Origin: Minisyncoccia bacterium
GTDB taxonomy: Bacteria > Patescibacteriota > Minisyncoccia > UBA6257 > JAVHQB01
Direction: 5' to 3'
Assembly (NCBI GenBank): GCA_049299915.1
Contig: JBAQYG010000018.1
Coordinates: forward strand, 1 to 36,578
Length of the DNA stretch: 36,578 nt
The stretch's first letter is position 1. The number at the start of each line of letters is the position of its first letter. The notes below the pieces were generated by a model. That model was not told where the DNA came from. It saw only the letters and a list, made by a program, of their open reading frames with translations, and did not search any database. Below are positions 7,783 to 31,713 of this stretch, one piece after another. Both the position numbers and the translations under genes were made by a program.

Positions 7783-7824
7783 GGCTTCGATATAAGTACC
7801 GGTAAAGCTATCAGCTTTAGAAAC

Positions 7825-7950
7825 TTATTTTTCTTTTTTAGGAGAAATCTTTTTGATTGGTTTTGGTTTGGCAGCCACTGGCTCACCAGCCAAAATCTTA
7901 GTTTTTGGATTTTTTACTTCTGTTGTACTTTTTTCTTTAGTAGCCATCAT
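7825..7950 (-). other. 41-codon Lys/Pro-rich ORF in the same frame as rpsI, separated from it by a single TAA
   Basis: ATG ATG at 7950 gives MMATKEKSTTEVKNPKTKILAGEPVAAKPKPIKKISPKKEK, with TAA at 7827-7825. Fourteen in-frame sense codons (VSKADSFTGTYIEA) then lead into the S9 core. Confidence 0.5.
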
Positions 7951-24607: not shown

Positions 24608-27600
24608 TTATTTCTTTTTTCTTAGAACCAAGGCATATAAGCCGCCTCCAATTACTATGAGTCCAAGGAATATTAAGAACCAATTGATATTCTTTTTGCC
24701 AGTTTCATCTAGGGTGCCCAAAACAATTTCTTCTTCTGGTTTAGTAGTAGCTGTTGTTACAGTGGTAGTCGTAGTAGCTTCTGTGGAAGCCCCTAATACA
24801 GACCCCTCTTCACCATAATTTCCAAACCCGCCTCTTTCATTAGTGAGATCTGGCATAGCTAAACCTAATTCGGGGCAAACTATAAGATTAATCTTCCTTT
24901 GGGTAGTTCTGTAAACATATCCCGTAGAATCGTTTGAACTAATAAGAAGTCCTGCATCTACCCATGGTTGCAAAACTTCATCTTTATAAGCTAATTGGAA
25001 AGTAGAAACAGCATTAAAATCATCTTGGCTGTAAATACCATCAACGGGTAAATTAAGACCAAGGTATTCATTAAGGAACTGTTGTAATTTTATAACTTCT
25101 ACTGGGTCATTGTTGCTTCCTAATTTTATATATTTATAAAGATATAAATCACAATTTCCTATAGAAGCACCTAAAACTTCACCTTGGGGTTCAGTGCTCT
25201 CGGTGCTAGCTCCAGCTACTGCAGCAGGAGTAGTTGTAGTGGTAGTAGTACCATCATTACCAGTATATGTAGGAGATGAACCGCCACCACATGATTGAGT
25301 ATTGCAAGATCGGCTTGTGGGTCCTTCACATTGTGCGCCGTCGGCACAAGTTCTTGTTTGAGTTCCGCCACCACAAGTTACCGAACAAGTACCCCATTCT
25401 GACCAACCAACAATATAATTAAAGAAATCTGCTCGGGCTTCGTGGTCAAATTGAGTCTGCACATCTGATTCAACGGTAACCGTTTGGCATAAAGGGTCAC
25501 CACTACCCCAACCAAGTTGCATGACTTCACAGATTTGATAATCTCCATTATTAATATTTTCAAATCGATAGAAACCACCGCCATCTGTAGTTTGATAGGG
25601 TTCTTGCTGGTCAAATTCTTCGTCATGGTCTAAATCAAGATAAATAGTCCAACCATTCATTCCAGCGGCTTCATCGGGATCAGAAGAATCGTACAGACCA
25701 TCACGATCTAAATCATTTATTTTATAACCAGCAATGCTGCCAGTTGGATTGTTATTATAATTCAAGAAAGTAACTTGAGGATGACTATTGGTTTCACTAA
25801 TTACAACTTGGGGGCTACCATCGGGGGTAGGTGCAGTTTGAGTCCAACCAGTTGTTTGGTTTTCGTGTACGGTATAAGTTCCGTATGATAAATTATCGAA
25901 TTCGAAACAGCCAGAAGTTTGATTAGTTGTTTCATTGGCAACTTCATGACCCGCTGGTTCACCCTCGGGATAATACCATAATCTTATACTCCAAGATAAA
26001 GGAGTATCTGTCCCAACATCATATATTCCATCTTGATTAGCATCGTTGTATTTGCAAGCGGTAATAGAACCAGTTGGTATCTCATAATTAAAGAAATTTG
26101 CTTGAGTTTCTACTCCACTAGTAACCACCACCTCTTGGCAAAGAGAATTGCTTGTCCATCCTCCTTTCATCACTTCACATATCTGATAAGTACCAACAGA
26201 AAGAGTTCTAAAACTATAGAAACCTTCTTGATTAGTTGTTGTCTGGAGATTATCTCCATCGTCATTACAGTCCCCGTCTTTATTTCCATCTATACAAATA
26301 TTCCAACCCTCTAAACCCGGTTCTTGTTCGTCCCAATTACCGTCTTTATTTAAGTCATTGTATTTGTATCCAGCAATATCACCTGTCGGAGTCGGATTTT
26401 CTGATATACACTCATAAACTTTCAAATCCAAAGAGTCACTATTATCACTCATTCCCGTCTGATTCTGCCATTCAGTATCAAACCAATCACTATATCTATC
26501 TCCTATAACAAACTGTGTTGAAGGTGAACCGCTTGGAATGGAATAATAGAAATCATAAAAATGATCGGAATTATAAACACCCCAATCAATAACTCCAACT
26601 GTATTAGTACCTAAATTACCTAAAAGAGCATGGGCTGCATAATCATTGCCAGTTCCCAGTATTCCGTATTGAGACTGACCAAGCGTATAGCCAGCATCTG
26701 CCTGTAGAGTACTATTGGGTTTAAATAAGCCCGAAACTCTGAATAGGTAACTTTTCCCACCCGTTAAATTGAATGTTTCTCCGTCGACATCATTACCATT
26801 GATGGACAACTGTTGAATTGGCTGGGAACCTTCAACTGTTCCATTTGGACAACCTTGGTCAGAATGATAAATAGGTATTAAGTGGCAAGTAGTAGAACAG
26901 AAATTGTGGTCGGGAGTTATACCTTCTGTGCCTTCGCATTCTTCAGTGCTATCTTTTACGCCATTGCCACAAGATGGGGCATTAAAACCAACACAATAAT
27001 AAGTATTTTGATACTGAGGATTATTTATGTAGTCATAGTTATCATAATTTAAGATATCATCATGACAATAAAATTCAGCACTAGAGGTTTGGCTAGTGTC
27101 TGTTCCCGTAAAAGGAATAAAATTATTTTGTAAAACTTCTCTTACCCAAATCTTGCTACTTCCATTCAGGTCACTAATGGAGGCAGGCGAAGCAATACTA
27201 AAAGTATTCCAATCACTACCACCAGGACCAACTAAAGCATCGCCAGGATTGCTTACATTTTCATAAGCCCATTCAAAATTCCAATCTTGAGTAAAACGAC
27301 ATTTTCCTTGGCTTTGATCAACCCAATTTTGAGCAGTACCTGAGCCAATTACAGTGTCGGGATAAGTTGAACCACTACCAGCTCCCCAATTTGGAAGGTC
27401 TGATTCGTTATCACAAATTACCTTTGAAGCAACTATTGTTACTGGAGAATTGGCACAATCAGAATCAGCACTATCCTTATATCCGTCACAATCATTATCT
27501 AATTGGTCATTACAAATTTCAGCACCCGTGGAAATACAATTATAATTATCACAAGAATTTCCAATTCCATCATGATCATCATCAACTTGATTAGTATCAT

Positions 27601-27901
27601 CTGAATATGAAGGGCATAAATCGCAAGCATCGCCTATTCCATCTCCGTCGGCATCAGCTTGATCGTCATTAATAGTATTAGGACAATTATCGCAGGCATT
27701 ACCCTTACTATCCTCATCTGTGTTTGCTTGATCTGTATTAGGAGTAGTTGGACAATTGTCTGAAAAATCTGGAAAAGTATCTGTATCGGTATCGGTAATA
27801 GGGTCTCCTGCTAATGCCAATCTGATAAATCCTCCGCTTGACGAAACCATGGAAAAAACCATAGTTACAATCAAAACTTTGGACCAAAATAATTTATTCA
27901 T
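24608..27901 (-). CDS. 1097-aa mosaic surface adhesin (TSP type 3 repeats, Cys-rich repeats, 3 SdrD-B/Cna-B-like repeats, TSP type 1 repeat, PG-binding domain, C-terminal sorting-signal-like tail)
   Basis: Signal peptide, then DNCPTTPNTDQANTDEDSKGNACDNCPNTINDDQADADGDGIGDACDLCP (TSP3) and CGNGVKDSTEECEG. SdrD-B-like repeats: GYKYNDLNKDGNWDEQEPGLEGW...GFYSFRTLSVGTYQICEV, plus two more. TSP1: WSEWGTCSVTCGGGTQTRTC. PG_binding_1-like: VIKLQQFLNEYLGLNLPVDGIYSQDDFNAVSTFQ. The end reads LDETGKKNINWFLIFLGLIVIGGGLYALVLRKKK. Confidence 0.75.
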   Translation of the reverse strand: MNKLFWSKVLIVTMVFSMVSSSGGFIRLALAGDPITDTDTDTFPDFSDNCPTTPNTDQANTDEDSKGNACDNCPNTINDDQADADGDGIGDACDLCPSYSDDTNQVDDDHDGIGNSCDNYNCISTGAEICNDQLDNDCDGYKDSADSDCANSPVTIVASKVICDNESDLPNWGAGSGSTYPDTVIGSGTAQNWVDQSQGKCRFTQDWNFEWAYENVSNPGDALVGPGGSDWNTFSIASPASISDLNGSSKIWVREVLQNNFIPFTGTDTSQTSSAEFYCHDDILNYDNYDYINNPQYQNTYYCVGFNAPSCGNGVKDSTEECEGTEGITPDHNFCSTTCHLIPIYHSDQGCPNGTVEGSQPIQQLSINGNDVDGETFNLTGGKSYLFRVSGLFKPNSTLQADAGYTLGQSQYGILGTGNDYAAHALLGNLGTNTVGVIDWGVYNSDHFYDFYYSIPSGSPSTQFVIGDRYSDWFDTEWQNQTGMSDNSDSLDLKVYECISENPTPTGDIAGYKYNDLNKDGNWDEQEPGLEGWNICIDGNKDGDCNDDGDNLQTTTNQEGFYSFRTLSVGTYQICEVMKGGWTSNSLCQEVVVTSGVETQANFFNYEIPTGSITACKYNDANQDGIYDVGTDTPLSWSIRLWYYPEGEPAGHEVANETTNQTSGCFEFDNLSYGTYTVHENQTTGWTQTAPTPDGSPQVVISETNSHPQVTFLNYNNNPTGSIAGYKINDLDRDGLYDSSDPDEAAGMNGWTIYLDLDHDEEFDQQEPYQTTDGGGFYRFENINNGDYQICEVMQLGWGSGDPLCQTVTVESDVQTQFDHEARADFFNYIVGWSEWGTCSVTCGGGTQTRTCADGAQCEGPTSRSCNTQSCGGGSSPTYTGNDGTTTTTTTPAAVAGASTESTEPQGEVLGASIGNCDLYLYKYIKLGSNNDPVEVIKLQQFLNEYLGLNLPVDGIYSQDDFNAVSTFQLAYKDEVLQPWVDAGLLISSNDSTGYVYRTTQRKINLIVCPELGLAMPDLTNERGGFGNYGEEGSVLGASTEATTTTTVTTATTKPEEEIVLGTLDETGKKNINWFLIFLGLIVIGGGLYALVLRKKK

Positions 27902-27938
27902 AACAATTCAAAAATATGTTTTATTATTAAAATTTTAT

Positions 27939-28000
27939 AAGGCTTAAGGCCTTAGTGGTTACCCATACAACTGGAGGGTAATAAGGATAACCACTAAAGC
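27939..28000 (-). repeat. Hairpin repeat, copy 2 (38 nt upstream of the adhesin ATG)
   Basis: See copy 1. The core is CCTTAGTGGTTACCCATACAACTGGAGGGTAATAAGGATAACCACTAAAGC on the plus strand. Confidence 0.8.
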
Positions 28001-28016
28001 TTTAATTTTAGATACT

Positions 28017-28039
28017 AAAAAATTGGCTCTTTAGGCCAA
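28017..28039 (-). terminator. Weak terminator-like hairpin inside the adhesin leader
   Basis: Minus-strand UUGGC-CUAAAGA-GCCAA followed by UUUUUU; only a 5-bp stem. Confidence 0.3.
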
Positions 28040-28232
28040 CTTAAACAAACCTCCAGTCACACAGTTTATTTCCTTCGAGAAGGTTCCCCCATCCCAGAAG
28101 TGTTTATAAACAAAATTCTCCATTATTACCTAATTATGTCCGACCTCGCTCTTCATAAAAGGATGAGCGACTAACAGACTTTCTTTTATTTAAATGTATT
28201 ACCTCTTAAAAAAAATTAATTATTATGAATTT

Positions 28233-28260
28233 AAAAAACCAGCTCATAAAATAAAGCCGG
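28233..28260 (-). terminator. Terminator hairpin overlapping the 3' end of aptamer copy C (candidate expression platform)
   Basis: Minus-strand CCGGCU-UUAUUUUAUG-AGCUGG followed by UUUUUU. The 5' arm CCGGCU is part of the conserved AACCGG/P1 3' segment of the aptamer. Confidence 0.55.
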
Positions 28261-28324
28261 TTTTGCCATTGACTCGCCATAGTCTTAAGGCAACCAATTT
28301 GTAGACTATAGGTCTTCGTCTCTT
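28253..28324 (-). promoter_or_regulatory. Structured RNA element, copy C (divergent c-di-GMP-II riboswitch-like aptamer)
   Basis: RNA: AAGAGACGAAGACCUAUAGUCUACAAAUUGGUUGCCUUAAGACUAUGGCGAGUCAAUGGCAAAACCGGCUUU. P2 is CUAUAGUCU/AGACUAUGG and the pseudoknot is UUGCC/GGCAA. It lacks the GUUGAU block seen in A and B. Confidence 0.5.
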
Positions 28325-28367
28325 AGGACTAGTTAGTTGTCAAAAAACACTTATCTAAATTATTTTC

Positions 28368-28396
28368 ATTTAACAATCATTTCGGTTTCTTGTCAA
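28368..28396 (-). promoter_or_regulatory. Candidate sigma-70-type promoter of the adhesin/TasA/SipW transcription unit
   Basis: The minus strand reads TTGACA-N17-TTAAAT, ending about 45 nt upstream of aptamer C. Confidence 0.4.
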
Positions 28397-28528
28397 GAGA
28401 GTTATCCACAGGGTTAATTAACTAAAATTTAATCCATTAAAATAAATAATTAAATTTTAAATACTTTTCAATTTACAAATCAACTTCAAAAACTACATAT
28501 ACAAATGAAACAATAATAAGAAATAATA

Positions 28529-29890
28529 TTAGAGAGTCACTAGGACTGCACGAGTAAGTGACCCCACATAACCCAAAGTAGGAAATATATTATGGGCTAT
28601 TTGAAATTTAATCACGGCTGCTTCTGTAGCCGAACCAAAATAAATTGTTTCATTACCAATAGAACCAAAACCACTTGAAGCAACTATGTATCCATTGGCA
28701 TTTAATAATTTTTGCAGAGCGCGAACATCCTCCCCACTAATACCTCTATATAAATTACGAGTAAAGGTCACCTCAGTACTATTTGTGGGAATAGTCGTCG
28801 AAACTGAAGGGGGTAAGTCCCCTGATGGATGAGCAGCGATAAACGCTCGTGTTATAGCCCCATAATACCCAATTGAAGGAGAAATACCCATAGCTATTTG
28901 GTATTCTATAAGAGCTGTTTGGGTAATTTCTCCAAAATATCCAGTGGCCCCAGCACTAGCAAGACGTGTCGCAGCAGCTCCTGTAGCTGCTTTGATTAAA
29001 TAATTCTGAAGCTCAATAACCTTAGTTCCCGATGAACCAAGCGCAAGATCGTCACTAAGAACAGGGGTATAGACATTTATGGGCAGTGTAGTAGGAGTTG
29101 TTGGAATAGATGTAATGGCGTTGATTATGGGTTGAGGCAAGGAAATACCGGCGTCTAACGCTTTAATAAATGTAGAGGGAAAATTAGTTACTAAAAGTTG
29201 CGAAAGAGTAGTACTATCGGAAGTTTGGGTAAGAATTGTGGAAAGAAAGGATATTTTTTCTTGAAGAGAAAATTCTCCTGTTAAACGTGGAAATGGGTCC
29301 ATTGGAGTATCGGAACTATTGTGTATTTCAAAATGAAGATGGGCTGCTCCCCCAGAAGCATTACCAGTATTACCAACATAACCAATAAGTGAGCCTTGTC
29401 CGAGAACTAATCCAGAAACAACTCCCTCTCCGATACTTGTAAGATGCATATATACAAATGTTTCGCACCCAGGATTAGCAGTATAAACATAATTCCCTGA
29501 GCTTGTACCAGTACCGGTACGCAAAACAACTGCAGGGGTTGGAGAAACAATTGGCGTTCCTTTAACTGCCATAATATCTTCACCTAAGTGTAGACGATTA
29601 ACATCACGTGGGTCACCAAAATTGGGTGAAATATCTTTGACTTCAATACCAAAAAGAACGGGCATCATCACCGAAGCATTGGCCGTAGTTCCTAAGGCAT
29701 TAATTTTTTGTTGTAAATCATTTGATTGATGTGAGTAGTCTCGTGTCCATGGCTGGTCAACACTTGGTGTATAGGCTGCTAGAACACTTAATACGGGAGA
29801 TATGGCAAGGATAAACAATACAATCATTGCTATATAATGCACCAAACGTTTCATTCCCCATTCGTTTAAAAGTACTTTCATATAGCCCAT
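28529..29890 (-). CDS. M23 family metallopeptidase with two C-terminal peptidoglycan-binding (PG_binding_1-like) repeats
   Basis: HLGEDIMAVKGTPIVSP (HxxxD), GYVGNTGNASGGAAHLHFEIH (HxH). The two repeats are GTKVIELQNYL...GYFGEITQTALIEYQ and GEDVRALQKLLNANGY...YFGSATEAAVIKFQ. It has an N-terminal TM/signal. Confidence 0.85.
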   Translation of the reverse strand: MGYMKVLLNEWGMKRLVHYIAMIVLFILAISPVLSVLAAYTPSVDQPWTRDYSHQSNDLQQKINALGTTANASVMMPVLFGIEVKDISPNFGDPRDVNRLHLGEDIMAVKGTPIVSPTPAVVLRTGTGTSSGNYVYTANPGCETFVYMHLTSIGEGVVSGLVLGQGSLIGYVGNTGNASGGAAHLHFEIHNSSDTPMDPFPRLTGEFSLQEKISFLSTILTQTSDSTTLSQLLVTNFPSTFIKALDAGISLPQPIINAITSIPTTPTTLPINVYTPVLSDDLALGSSGTKVIELQNYLIKAATGAAATRLASAGATGYFGEITQTALIEYQIAMGISPSIGYYGAITRAFIAAHPSGDLPPSVSTTIPTNSTEVTFTRNLYRGISGEDVRALQKLLNANGYIVASSGFGSIGNETIYFGSATEAAVIKFQIAHNIFPTLGYVGSLTRAVLVTL

Positions 29891-29963
29891 GGTAGCGCAT
29901 ACTAAAAGGAAAACCTATTATTTTATAAACCGATAGTTGCTTTTTGGCAAGTCGATAAAACTA

Positions 29964-29992
29964 CCAAAAACCACCCTAGCTAGAAAGAGTGG
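29964..29992 (-). terminator. Intrinsic terminator after the ATPase gene
   Basis: Minus-strand CCACUC-UUUCUAGCUA-GGGUGG followed by UUUUUGG. Confidence 0.5.
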
Positions 29993-30036
29993 CTTTGAAA
30001 TAAAATATTTGAAATTCCTCAACTATATCTACTCTA

Positions 30037-31713
30037 TTATTTCCCCAATATCGTATCCAAGATATTTTTTAATTTTTTAGTGTCCACATTCTGTTTGTTA
30101 GGACGACTGCTAGTCGTAGCCCTTATCGCATCAGTATGTTTATCTGGTTTGGCTGTAAAAGAAGCCGGTACAACGTTTTTGGTAACGCTATCCAAAGCTT
30201 CTATCTTTCCTGTTTTTATATTCTCTAAACAATCTGAACAGTATACTGGTCTATTGGCATCTGGCTCAAAGGGTACACTAATAGGTCGGGCGCATAGTGA
30301 ACATTTGGTCACCCAACGAGTCTTTTCTTTTGTTGATTCTTTATTACCATTATTTCCCCTATCTACTTCTGCGGGAGGATTTCCTGTGTCCAATCCATAA
30401 TTATAAACACTCCAATCACTAATTGTTTTTTCTACTTCATTTTTATGACCGCTATAAAGACTACGAGAGTATTCTTTTATTTTTTCCCGGTTGGTAAACT
30501 TAATCCTATCAAAGGGTGGAATGTTTAAAGCAGAAAATGGTTCAGATACATAACCGTCAACCATTAAGCGCATATAGAAATTAAAGTTGGGCAAGTTGGA
30601 GATATCTATAGCACTGAATTGGCGTTTACATTCATTTTCAAAATACATGGCATCCTCTATACCTAAACGATATAGAACCATTGTGCCGACGTTACCAATA
30701 ATAGCGTCTCTCACCGTATCGTTAAGCTGAGCCACATACTGATGGGCCATTATGAGATTCAAATGGTACTTACGGGCTTCAGATAAGATATTGGCGAAAG
30801 AATCAGTAGAGAAATTCTGAAACTCATCTACATATAAATAAAAGTCAGGGCGCTCTTCCTCGGGTACATTAACTCGAGACATAGCCGCCAATTGCAGCTC
30901 AGTAATAAGAATGGCACCTAAAAGAGCAGAATTGTCCTCCCCTATTAGCCCCTTAGAAAGATTCACTATCAATATCTTGCCATTGTCTATAATCTCTCTT
31001 AAATTTATTTTGCTGTGTGTTTGGCCAATGATATTTCTAATTAAAGGATTAGAAATAAACTGACCAATCTTATTCTGAATGGCAGCTACGGCTTCCTGAG
31101 CATATTTTTCGTTATAGTTTGCGAATTCGTTTACCCAGAAAGATTTAACCATTGGGTCTTTGACGTAATCTACTACTACCTGGCGATAATTCTTATCGCT
31201 CAGCATTCTGTTAATACTTAAAAGAGTTGTATCTGGATATTCTAGAAGAGCTAATAAAGTATTATTTAAAATGTATTCCATTCTGGCAGACCAAACATCT
31301 GGCCAGATCTTTTTAAATACTGCCATGAGTCCCGAACTAATTAAATGACGAGACTCTGGAGTAACGTCTTCCATTACGTTGAAAGAGATTGGCCAATCTA
31401 AATCACTTGGATTGAAATACACCACGTCTTTAATTCGTTCTTCAGGAACATAGTCCAACATCAAATCAGCAAATTCTCCGTGAGGATCCACAATACCAAT
31501 ACCTGAGCCATTTTTAATATCAGCTATAGCCATGTTCTCCATAATAGTAGTTTTACCGGTACCAGTTTGCCCGATAATATACATATGGCGACGCCTATCT
31601 TTGGCCTTAATCCCAAATTTGGTAAGATCCCCTCTAAAATTAGTTAAACCTAGTGGGATTAATTGATCGTCTTCGACTATATATGATTTTTTTATTGGGA
31701 TATCTTCAGTCAT
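30037..31713 (-). CDS. VirD4/TraG/TrwB-like (type IV coupling protein-like) P-loop ATPase lacking TM segments, with C-terminal CxxC-x17-CxxC zinc ribbon
   Basis: Walker A IIGQTGTGKTT, Walker B FYLYVDEFQNF, and ARKYHLNLIMAHQYVAQL typical of the TraG/VirD4 C-terminal half. The C-terminus CSLCARPISVPFEPDANRPVYCSDC has exactly 17 residues between the Cys pairs (nt 30229-30303). Confidence 0.7.
   Translation of the reverse strand: MTEDIPIKKSYIVEDDQLIPLGLTNFRGDLTKFGIKAKDRRRHMYIIGQTGTGKTTIMENMAIADIKNGSGIGIVDPHGEFADLMLDYVPEERIKDVVYFNPSDLDWPISFNVMEDVTPESRHLISSGLMAVFKKIWPDVWSARMEYILNNTLLALLEYPDTTLLSINRMLSDKNYRQVVVDYVKDPMVKSFWVNEFANYNEKYAQEAVAAIQNKIGQFISNPLIRNIIGQTHSKINLREIIDNGKILIVNLSKGLIGEDNSALLGAILITELQLAAMSRVNVPEEERPDFYLYVDEFQNFSTDSFANILSEARKYHLNLIMAHQYVAQLNDTVRDAIIGNVGTMVLYRLGIEDAMYFENECKRQFSAIDISNLPNFNFYMRLMVDGYVSEPFSALNIPPFDRIKFTNREKIKEYSRSLYSGHKNEVEKTISDWSVYNYGLDTGNPPAEVDRGNNGNKESTKEKTRWVTKCSLCARPISVPFEPDANRPVYCSDCLENIKTGKIEALDSVTKNVVPASFTAKPDKHTDAIRATTSSRPNKQNVDTKKLKNILDTILGK

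Follow-up and report, generated by a model that had tools for sequence, protein, structure and literature searches.

The window analyzed here, a stretch of 36,578 nucleotides (nt) from contig JBAQYG010000018.1, is a chromosome segment that carries the genes for S13-S11-S4-RpoA-L17, L13-S9, FtsW, MurG, GltX, AlaRS, MnmA, and QueH. On its minus strand there is a locus in which a promoter is followed by an aptamer of the cyclic di-guanosine monophosphate (c-di-GMP) class II type, which we call type C, then by an intrinsic terminator (T1) built in part from the 3′ end of that aptamer, a long leader, and a gene string that starts with a 1097-aa surface protein. Two other class II aptamers, B and A, stand in tandem farther along the same strand. 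Here we examine whether type C and T1 together make a riboswitch, and the evidence suggests that they probably form a transcriptional ON switch. The coordinates of all the features are given in Table 1.

Table 1. Features of the type C locus and of the sequence around it, in window coordinates except where a relative is named
Feature	Coordinates	Strand	Basis or remark	Identity to relatives
Type C c-di-GMP-II-type aptamer	28332-28246	minus	Rfam RF01786 and RF03169, clade model, covariation, orthologues	91-92%
P1	28324-28322 / 28256-28254	minus
P2	28320-28318 / 28273-28271	minus
Kink-turn GA dinucleotides	28314-28313 and 28275-28274	minus
P3 hairpin, CUAUAGUCU/AGACUAUGG	28311-28303 / 28285-28277	minus
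Pseudoknot UUGCC/GGCAA	28293-28289 / 28267-28263	minus
UUGG / CCGG	28297-28294 / 28260-28257	minus
Conserved AA	28262-28261	minus
Intrinsic terminator T1	28264-28233	minus	folding energy, shuffles, 4-locus conservation	84-96%
T1 5′ arm, AAAACCGGCUU	28264-28254	minus
T1 3′ arm, GAGCUGGUUUU	28245-28235	minus	8-nt loop between arms
T1 inner stem CCGGCU / AGCUGG	28260-28255 / 28244-28239	minus	N10 between
U6 tract	28238-28233	minus
Promoter TTGACA (28396-28391), N17, TTAAAT (28373-28368)	28396-28368	minus	5-locus conservation
Conserved 14-nt box just upstream of -35, CCCTGTGGATAACT	28413-28400	minus		93-100%
Intervening leader segments				37-57%
Hairpin H1 (GUCUG...CGGAC, inner stem)	28179-28138	minus	-16.5 kcal/mol
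Candidate small ORF, 30 codons, MENFVYKHFWDGGTFSKEINCVTGGLFKLA (MENFVYKHFWDGGTF...GGLFKLA)	28123-28031	minus	open in six loci
T2, second terminator-like hairpin (GUUGGC, 7-nt loop, GCCAAU, U6)	28042-28017	minus	-7.6 kcal/mol
Hairpin H3 copy 1, loop UUACCCUCCAGUUG	28005-27943	minus	63 nt, 25-27 bp; just before adhesin ORF
Hairpin H3 copy 2	24564-24502	minus	between adhesin stop and next gene; -39.3 kcal/mol
First gene, 1097-aa surface protein	27901-24608	minus	Pfam
Downstream same-strand genes	24386-17673	minus	Pfam, NCBIfam
Two proteins with SipW-cognate signal peptides	24386-23280, 23178-21868	minus
SipW-like signal peptidase I	21731-21147	minus	TIGR02228 121.7 bits, cut-off 51.85
F5/8-type-C + LTD protein	21136-18872	minus	SipW-cognate signal peptide type
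Two proteins of unknown type	within 24386-17673	minus
Aptamer B, upstream of tandem	17630-17546	minus	RF01786 63.9 bits
Aptamer A, downstream of tandem	17487-17400	minus	RF01786 71.2 bits
Tandem aptamers in relatives	L002 6887-7119, L005 9444-9674, L128 3272-3504, L132 7443-7673
VirD4/TrwB-like coupling ATPase	31713-30037	minus	CxxC-x17-CxxC zinc finger
423-aa protein, no known family	32989-31718	minus	adjoins TrwB-like ATPase

A preliminary description of this DNA had proposed a minus-strand aptamer with the architecture of copies A and B and had placed it in a c-di-GMP class. Rfam does locate an aptamer there, and the class assignment is upheld by the family matches, by the covariation counts, and by orthologous loci. 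With permissive filters, the c-di-GMP-II family RF01786 matches type C with 43.6 bits (E-value 2e-8), and it is also the best family for the two orthologues, at 45.6 and 49.7 bits. A covariance model of the clade (R1) gives type C 75 bits, and when the window is searched with that clade-specific model, no copy other than A, B, and type C turns up.

The structural evidence comes from an alignment of 14 aptamers, taken from the window and from syntenic relatives. We counted pairs using the Rfam architecture plus the two pseudoknot helices, and as a control we slid the partners by 1-3 columns. Standard pairs occupy 90.7% of the cells, versus 27-41% in the slid controls. Pairing reaches 99% in P3, where 6 pairs covary, and 100% in the 5-bp pseudoknot, where 3 do; P2 contributes 2 covarying pairs. 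Type C keeps all the invariant columns of the alignment (24/24), among them the two GA dinucleotides of the kink-turn, the UUGG of the loop, and the AACCG of the tail, and these columns agree with the upper-case consensus positions of the Rfam alignment. Our remarks on ligand-contacting residues are based on the Rfam consensus lines and on general knowledge.

Most of the structural detail proposed earlier can be found in this alignment. Going from copy A to type C, the pseudoknot changes from ACGCC/GGCGU to UUGCC/GGCAA (ACACC/GGUGU is also seen among the other types) and CU/AG changes to UC/GA in a hairpin that had been called P2; the hairpin and the swap are real, but in the Rfam model the helix is P3. 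Type C thus does supply a third covariation state, in P3 and in the pseudoknot. The motifs AAAUUGG, GAGUCA, and AACCGG are all present on the minus strand. The GUUGAU joiner, on the other hand, is not missing as had been stated: at 28317-28313 there is a kink-turn-compatible GAA bulge followed by the invariant GA. The bulge reads AAA in the relatives, and the high-scoring canonical copies of one relative (L128) also have an A at the consensus U position of the joiner. The changes observed in P3 among the orthologues are one-sided and keep the pairs (U.G to C-G, A-U to G.U).

The hairpin CCGGCU-N10-AGCUGG with its U6 tract, also proposed before, stands at 28260-28233. Taking in the flanking A/U pairs, the stem of T1 has 11 bp and a folding energy of -13.5 kcal/mol; its 9-bp core has -11.7 kcal/mol, with z = -4.75 against shuffles. 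A simple terminator scan missed T1 because the loop limit of the scan is 8 nt. The 5′ arm is made wholly of aptamer residues: two A's of the pseudoknot, the conserved AA, CCGG, and the 3′ strand of P1. Terminator and aptamer thus have 11 nt in common (28264-28254), and since the 5′ arm of one is the 3′ core of the other, the two must be mutually exclusive, as the preliminary description had claimed. We looked in homologous loci for loss of this overlap and found the opposite, for it is invariant in the window and in L002, L005, and L126, where T1 is unchanged except for one loop base. A hairpin and U tract that share nucleotides with an aptamer, with the sharing kept in four loci, is what characterizes a terminator expression platform. 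A transcriptional platform is also the expected kind here, given a genome that does not use Shine-Dalgarno sequences: almost none of the genes in the window has one within 30 nt of its start, ribosomal protein genes included, and starts are A/U-rich.

The promoter TTGACA-N17-TTAAAT that had been described upstream is indeed present. Five loci (the window, L005, L002, L126, and L129) have identical hexamers set 17 nt apart, while the sequence of the spacer varies; a consensus promoter scan omits it because the -10 element has a T instead of an A at position 2. Just upstream of the -35 element, the 14-nt box CCCTGTGGATAACT is conserved across five loci in a neighborhood of only 41-57% identity. 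On the plus strand (28402-28410), 4 nt upstream of the -35 element, the box contains a perfect DnaA-box 9-mer, TTATCCACA; no other perfect match occurs in the window. We considered a DnaA-box cluster or an origin near the promoter, and rejected it as there is just the single box.

Promoter, type C aptamer, T1, leader, and adhesin gene appear in the same order in the syntenic metagenomic contigs L002, L005, and L126. In these three, promoter, aptamer, and terminator stand out as islands of 84-100% identity from flanks of 37-57%, and no part of the leader is better conserved than the aptamer and the terminator. When metagenome contigs were scanned with a pattern of 26 bases from the 5′ two-thirds of type C, only L126 and L005 were returned, so that the subtype, as far as near-exact matches go, looks confined to one narrow clade. 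Contigs reached through the TrwB-like neighbor end before the leader, and add no orthologues.

How would such a switch work? The energies of the nested folds are -20.7 kcal/mol for P3 plus terminator versus -6.2 kcal/mol for P1+P2+P3, which indicates that termination is the default state; a tertiary fold stabilized by ligand must then win kinetically, and that makes an ON switch. Transcription would start about 7 nt past the TTGACA-N17-TTAAAT promoter, and the nascent RNA would fold into P3, the kink-turn, and the pseudoknot between loop and tail. With c-di-GMP bound, the segment AAAACCGGCUU would be tied up by the pseudoknot, by the binding pocket, and by the short P1; T1 would be blocked, and RNA polymerase would proceed into the leader and the string of adhesin and SipW-cognate genes. 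With no ligand, a weak P1 of 3-5 bp and the tertiary contacts would be outcompeted by the 11-bp hairpin on the same segment, and transcription would end at the U6 tract.

We therefore read type C and T1 as a transcriptional ON riboswitch with the c-di-GMP class II fold, and we give this reading a probability of roughly 0.78. It is based on the homology and structure of the aptamer, its overlap with the terminator, the energetics, and the conservation. We infer what the ligand is, that the switch works in the ON direction in vivo, and that the downstream genes are transcribed together with the adhesin. The ON direction had been suggested before, and after the folding energies and the three orthologous loci it is still the best prediction. 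Given that copies A and B both exceed the gathering score of RF01786, the same ligand is expected for type C in this cell.

Several observations weigh against this reading. The RF01786 score of type C is below the family's gathering score of 53.5. Of the 11 bp that the model expects in P1, just 3 form in the window and 5 in the relatives. These two are connected: P1 positions are mostly unpaired when type C is aligned to the RF01786 and RF03169 models, and the shortfall in score maps to them, so the short P1 is the main cause of the sub-threshold score. The orthologues are too similar to each other to show covariation within T1. Neither the ORFs of the window nor the called genes of relatives, in about 100 kb of sequence from the clade, include one with a GGDEF, EAL, HD-GYP, or PilZ domain; this covers a fraction of a genome, compared with a contig of at least 545 kb. 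And the adhesin gene is not immediately behind T1: its ATG (27901) is 330 nt beyond, with T2 and a conserved leader in between, and read-through of T1 may not suffice to express it.

Six to seven loci conserve that leader, which folds better than shuffles (z -3.4) and matches no Rfam family. The inner stem of hairpin H1 covaries (CGCUC/GAGCG, CCAUC/GAUGG, UCAUC/GGUGA). It is followed by a candidate small open reading frame (ORF) whose stop codon falls within the loop of T2; this frame is open and similar in 6/6 loci, with lengths of 26-38 codons and a 3-nt indel, and a hand count of its substitutions gives no clear third-position bias. The ORF may encode a leader peptide or serve as an attenuator, or its overlap with RNA structure may be a coincidence. 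T2 is the sole terminator-like site reported by a scan of the region, and in six loci its stem is invariant and its loop variable. Next comes hairpin H3, with a second copy behind the adhesin gene that is 95% identical to the first. H3 is 90-95% conserved in relatives, it is specific to the gene strand given its several G.U pairs, and it has no Rfam family and no match in an IMG/VR search. Its loop CCUCCA is complementary to a UGGAGG at 28055-28050. We considered translational control in which this conserved UGGAGG/CCUCCA would act as Shine-Dalgarno and anti-Shine-Dalgarno, and dropped it because of the near absence of Shine-Dalgarno sequences noted above. We also considered a group I intron or allosteric ribozyme in the leader, which is rejected as no Intron_gpI signal appears at E-values up to 10 in 27700-28340. 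One relative (L129 7766-8110) has the promoter, the small ORF, T2, and H3, and lacks the aptamer, T1, and the adhesin gene. Its leader heads towards QueH, in a contig with many frameshifts and of doubtful quality. The riboswitch and the downstream leader thus look like separable modules.

With T2 and a small ORF ahead of the adhesin, control of that gene may take more than one step, and this leads to what we rank as the main rival to a simple adhesin switch, or its extension. The riboswitch would chiefly control a short leader transcript with an ORF of about 30 codons that ends at T2, as the first stage of a two-stage attenuator, and the adhesin would need a second event: the small ORF would be translated through the loop of T2, or the RNA would be processed at H3. 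That T2 is a canonical hairpin with U6, with the conservation just described, and that the ORF stays open to a stop in the T2 loop fit such an arrangement, and the aptamer-less leader in L129 indicates that the downstream module can stand alone. There is precedent in the small proteins known to be under c-di-GMP riboswitches in Clostridioides difficile (bioRxiv 10.64898/2026.06.10.731418). But T2 is weak, the ORF overlaps predicted RNA helices without a codon-like substitution pattern, and it is not called as a gene in any contig. We find this possible, yet we lean against it.

Two other readings would take away the proposed ligand or the function altogether. At gathering thresholds, the sole family that Rfam reports for type C is not RF01786 but RF03169 (c-di-GMP-II-GAG), with 41.7 bits against a gathering score of 40, a class thought to have an altered ligand; type C would then respond to something other than c-di-GMP. 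In agreement with this, type C and the GAG consensus both have an A-U pseudoknot pair by the pocket. However, the triplet in which the two Rfam consensus lines differ is GUGCAACCG in RF01786 and GGCGAGACCG in RF03169, and type C has GGCAAAACCG. Its AAA (28264-28262) aligns to the GAG of the model where the canonical RF01786 triplet is GCA, and at the third position, which tells the models apart (A in RF01786, G in RF03169), it has the canonical A. The GAG triplet that defines RF03169 is absent, and all the other core positions match the canonical copies in the same genome. Given that triplet, the higher RF01786 score under permissive filters, and the orthologues best matched by RF01786, we treat the RF03169 label as a threshold artifact; on the diagnostic AAA we reject membership in the GAG variant, and a different ligand is very improbable. 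We would file type C as a divergent member of the canonical c-di-GMP-II class, with c-di-GMP as its putative ligand. The remaining reading is that type C is a decayed, non-functional aptamer, and that the hairpin with U6 is a constitutive terminator or a chance structure. This would suit the sub-threshold score and the mostly unpaired P1, and some predicted c-di-GMP riboswitches in C. difficile are indeed non-functional (PMC6366702). Decay is hard to reconcile with an aptamer and terminator that are 84-96% identical among relatives when flanking leader segments are at 37-57%, with the retention of every core nucleotide, or with P3 changes that preserve pairing; and if T1 worked constitutively, 130 nt behind a conserved promoter, the operon would be kept silent. 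We hardly give it any credence, and an ON switch of the canonical class is the reading that we carry forward.

As for the genes that the ON switch would control, the preliminary description had it heading an adhesin/TasA/SipW string. The adhesin and a SipW-like peptidase are there; the 330-nt leader intervenes, and what resembles TasA is signal peptides only. The 1097-aa protein has by Pfam a signal peptide, TSP3-like and SdrD_B/SpaA-like repeats, and a peptidoglycan (PG)-binding-like region, and its C terminus (LDETG, a hydrophobic stretch, RKKK) resembles a sorting signal, with Gram_pos_anchor at 17 bits, below the cut-off of 20. Compared with the L005 protein, the ends are orthologous and the middle is reshuffled. 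Three neighbors of the SipW-like peptidase match the cognate signal-peptide model TIGR04088 (35.4, 27.6, and 25 bits; cut-off 19), so the peptidase and proteins with its cognate signal peptide occur side by side as in a matrix operon. Matches to Peptidase_M73 (PF12389) span only residues 8-62, the signal-peptide part of that model, and the BsaA family model scores far below its cut-off. Judging by strand, spacing, and the lack of a clear terminator, the adhesin and the downstream genes are probably co-transcribed. L002 and L005 do not have the SipW block: in them, the tandem aptamers and a gene with a CAP domain (cysteine-rich secretory protein family) come right after the adhesin.

In the window too, the tandem of B and A stands ahead of a CAP-domain gene, an arrangement that five genomes keep. 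Aptamer B is followed by a separate terminator (17527-17508), and aptamer A has no terminator before the ATG. L002 has a fourth class II aptamer (7796-7879, 59.2 bits) ahead of a second CAP-domain paralogue, and the riboswitch appears to travel with the duplication of the CAP gene.

The sequences closest to the AlaRS of the window, among named homologs, are from metagenome-assembled genomes of Candidatus Parcubacteria / Paceibacterota (78-84% identical), and more distant ones, at about 50% identity, are labelled Paceibacterota or Minisyncoccia. On this basis, the host is a member of the Paceibacteria, in the Candidate Phyla Radiation (CPR), and not a Firmicute. The parallel drawn earlier with Firmicutes and C. 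difficile is an analogy. When genome contigs are scanned with a 16-base aptamer pattern, 120 loci result, mostly chance matches as the pattern is loose, and about 19 are real class II aptamers, in Chloroflexota, Actinomycetota, Clostridia, and others; the single locus from another CPR group, the Saccharibacteria, is not an aptamer.

Comparing 24608-31713 with L126 and L005, we observe a break in conservation: the TrwB-like ATPase is 99% identical to that of L126, a metagenomic contig of 545 kb, the adjacent leader is about 76% identical, and the middle of the adhesin is reshuffled. The relatives also differ in an M23/PG-binding gene, in the SipW block, and in the CAP genes. By sequence comparison, the adhesin locus is a hypervariable surface-protein island. 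The pair formed by the ATPase and the 423-aa protein is kept upstream of the riboswitch locus across Paceibacteria, among housekeeping genes and with no obvious mobile element.

CPR biology centers on attachment to host cells. Three class II aptamers in 11 kb, all before secreted or surface proteins and all conserved, provide a testable handle on how attachment is regulated in these bacteria. One could imagine that in episymbiotic Paceibacteria c-di-GMP, self-made or host-derived, times the production of attachment proteins through a class II riboswitch regulon, in which type C would be the first gate, translation of the mini-ORF would act on T2, and H3, as a portable element, would mark, process, or stabilize every cistron in a hypervariable adhesin cassette. 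As a whole we regard this as speculative and rather doubtful; if true, the regulon and its composite leader would be a new cis-regulatory module not in Rfam. In any case, a conserved, structured leader of 330 nt with H1, a small ORF, T2, and a repeated H3 belongs to no known family. There is also a practical side for annotation, in that threshold-based use of Rfam mislabels type C as an orphan GAG variant, and other AT-rich class II aptamers with a short P1 are likely to be mis-annotated as RF03169. A full-text literature search returned no paper that ties c-di-GMP riboswitches to Patescibacteria/CPR, which is weak evidence of novelty given the limited set of literature.

Among known systems, RF03169 has in common with type C the gathering score that type C passes and the A-U pseudoknot pair next to the pocket; it differs by its GAG triplet, by a GC-rich consensus where type C is AT-rich, and by the lower score. 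In the leader of C. difficile CD3246, Lee et al. in 2010 reportedly described an allosteric group I ribozyme controlled by a c-di-GMP-II aptamer. As here, there is a class II aptamer and a long structured leader before an adhesin ORF with no ribosome-binding site at its start codon. In contrast, our locus gives no signal for a group I intron, its aptamer shares sequence with a canonical terminator, and the missing Shine-Dalgarno sequence is a genome-wide trait. The class I c-di-GMP ON riboswitch Bc2, upstream of the collagen adhesin gene cap in Bacillus thuringiensis (PMC6366702), is alike in the ligand-promoted read-through into an adhesin gene that we predict here, with an aptamer of the other class (GEMM-I) and in another phylum. 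The closest parallels are RF01786 members such as Cdi-2-4 (pilA1), Cdi-2-3 (CD2831), and Cdi-2-1 (CD3246). C. difficile has four class II riboswitches, every one an ON switch; two precede sortase-dependent adhesins, and one controls pilA1 (PMC6366702). They share with type C the P1, the 3-bp P2 with its kink-turn, P3, the loop-tail pseudoknot, and the conserved AACCG, and they have the same kind of target, a surface adhesin, and the same ON logic by terminator competition that we predict. Type C departs from them in a score about 10 bits below threshold, a P1 of 3-5 bp instead of about 11, a Paceibacteria/CPR host without Shine-Dalgarno sequences, and the 330-nt conserved leader after the switch. 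Type C would then belong to a known riboswitch class with a textbook mechanism, a class II aptamer that is its own anti-terminator before an adhesin gene. What is unusual is not the switch itself but where we find it: a tiny CPR genome, a putative surface-protein regulon with three riboswitches, and a conserved and unexplained leader.

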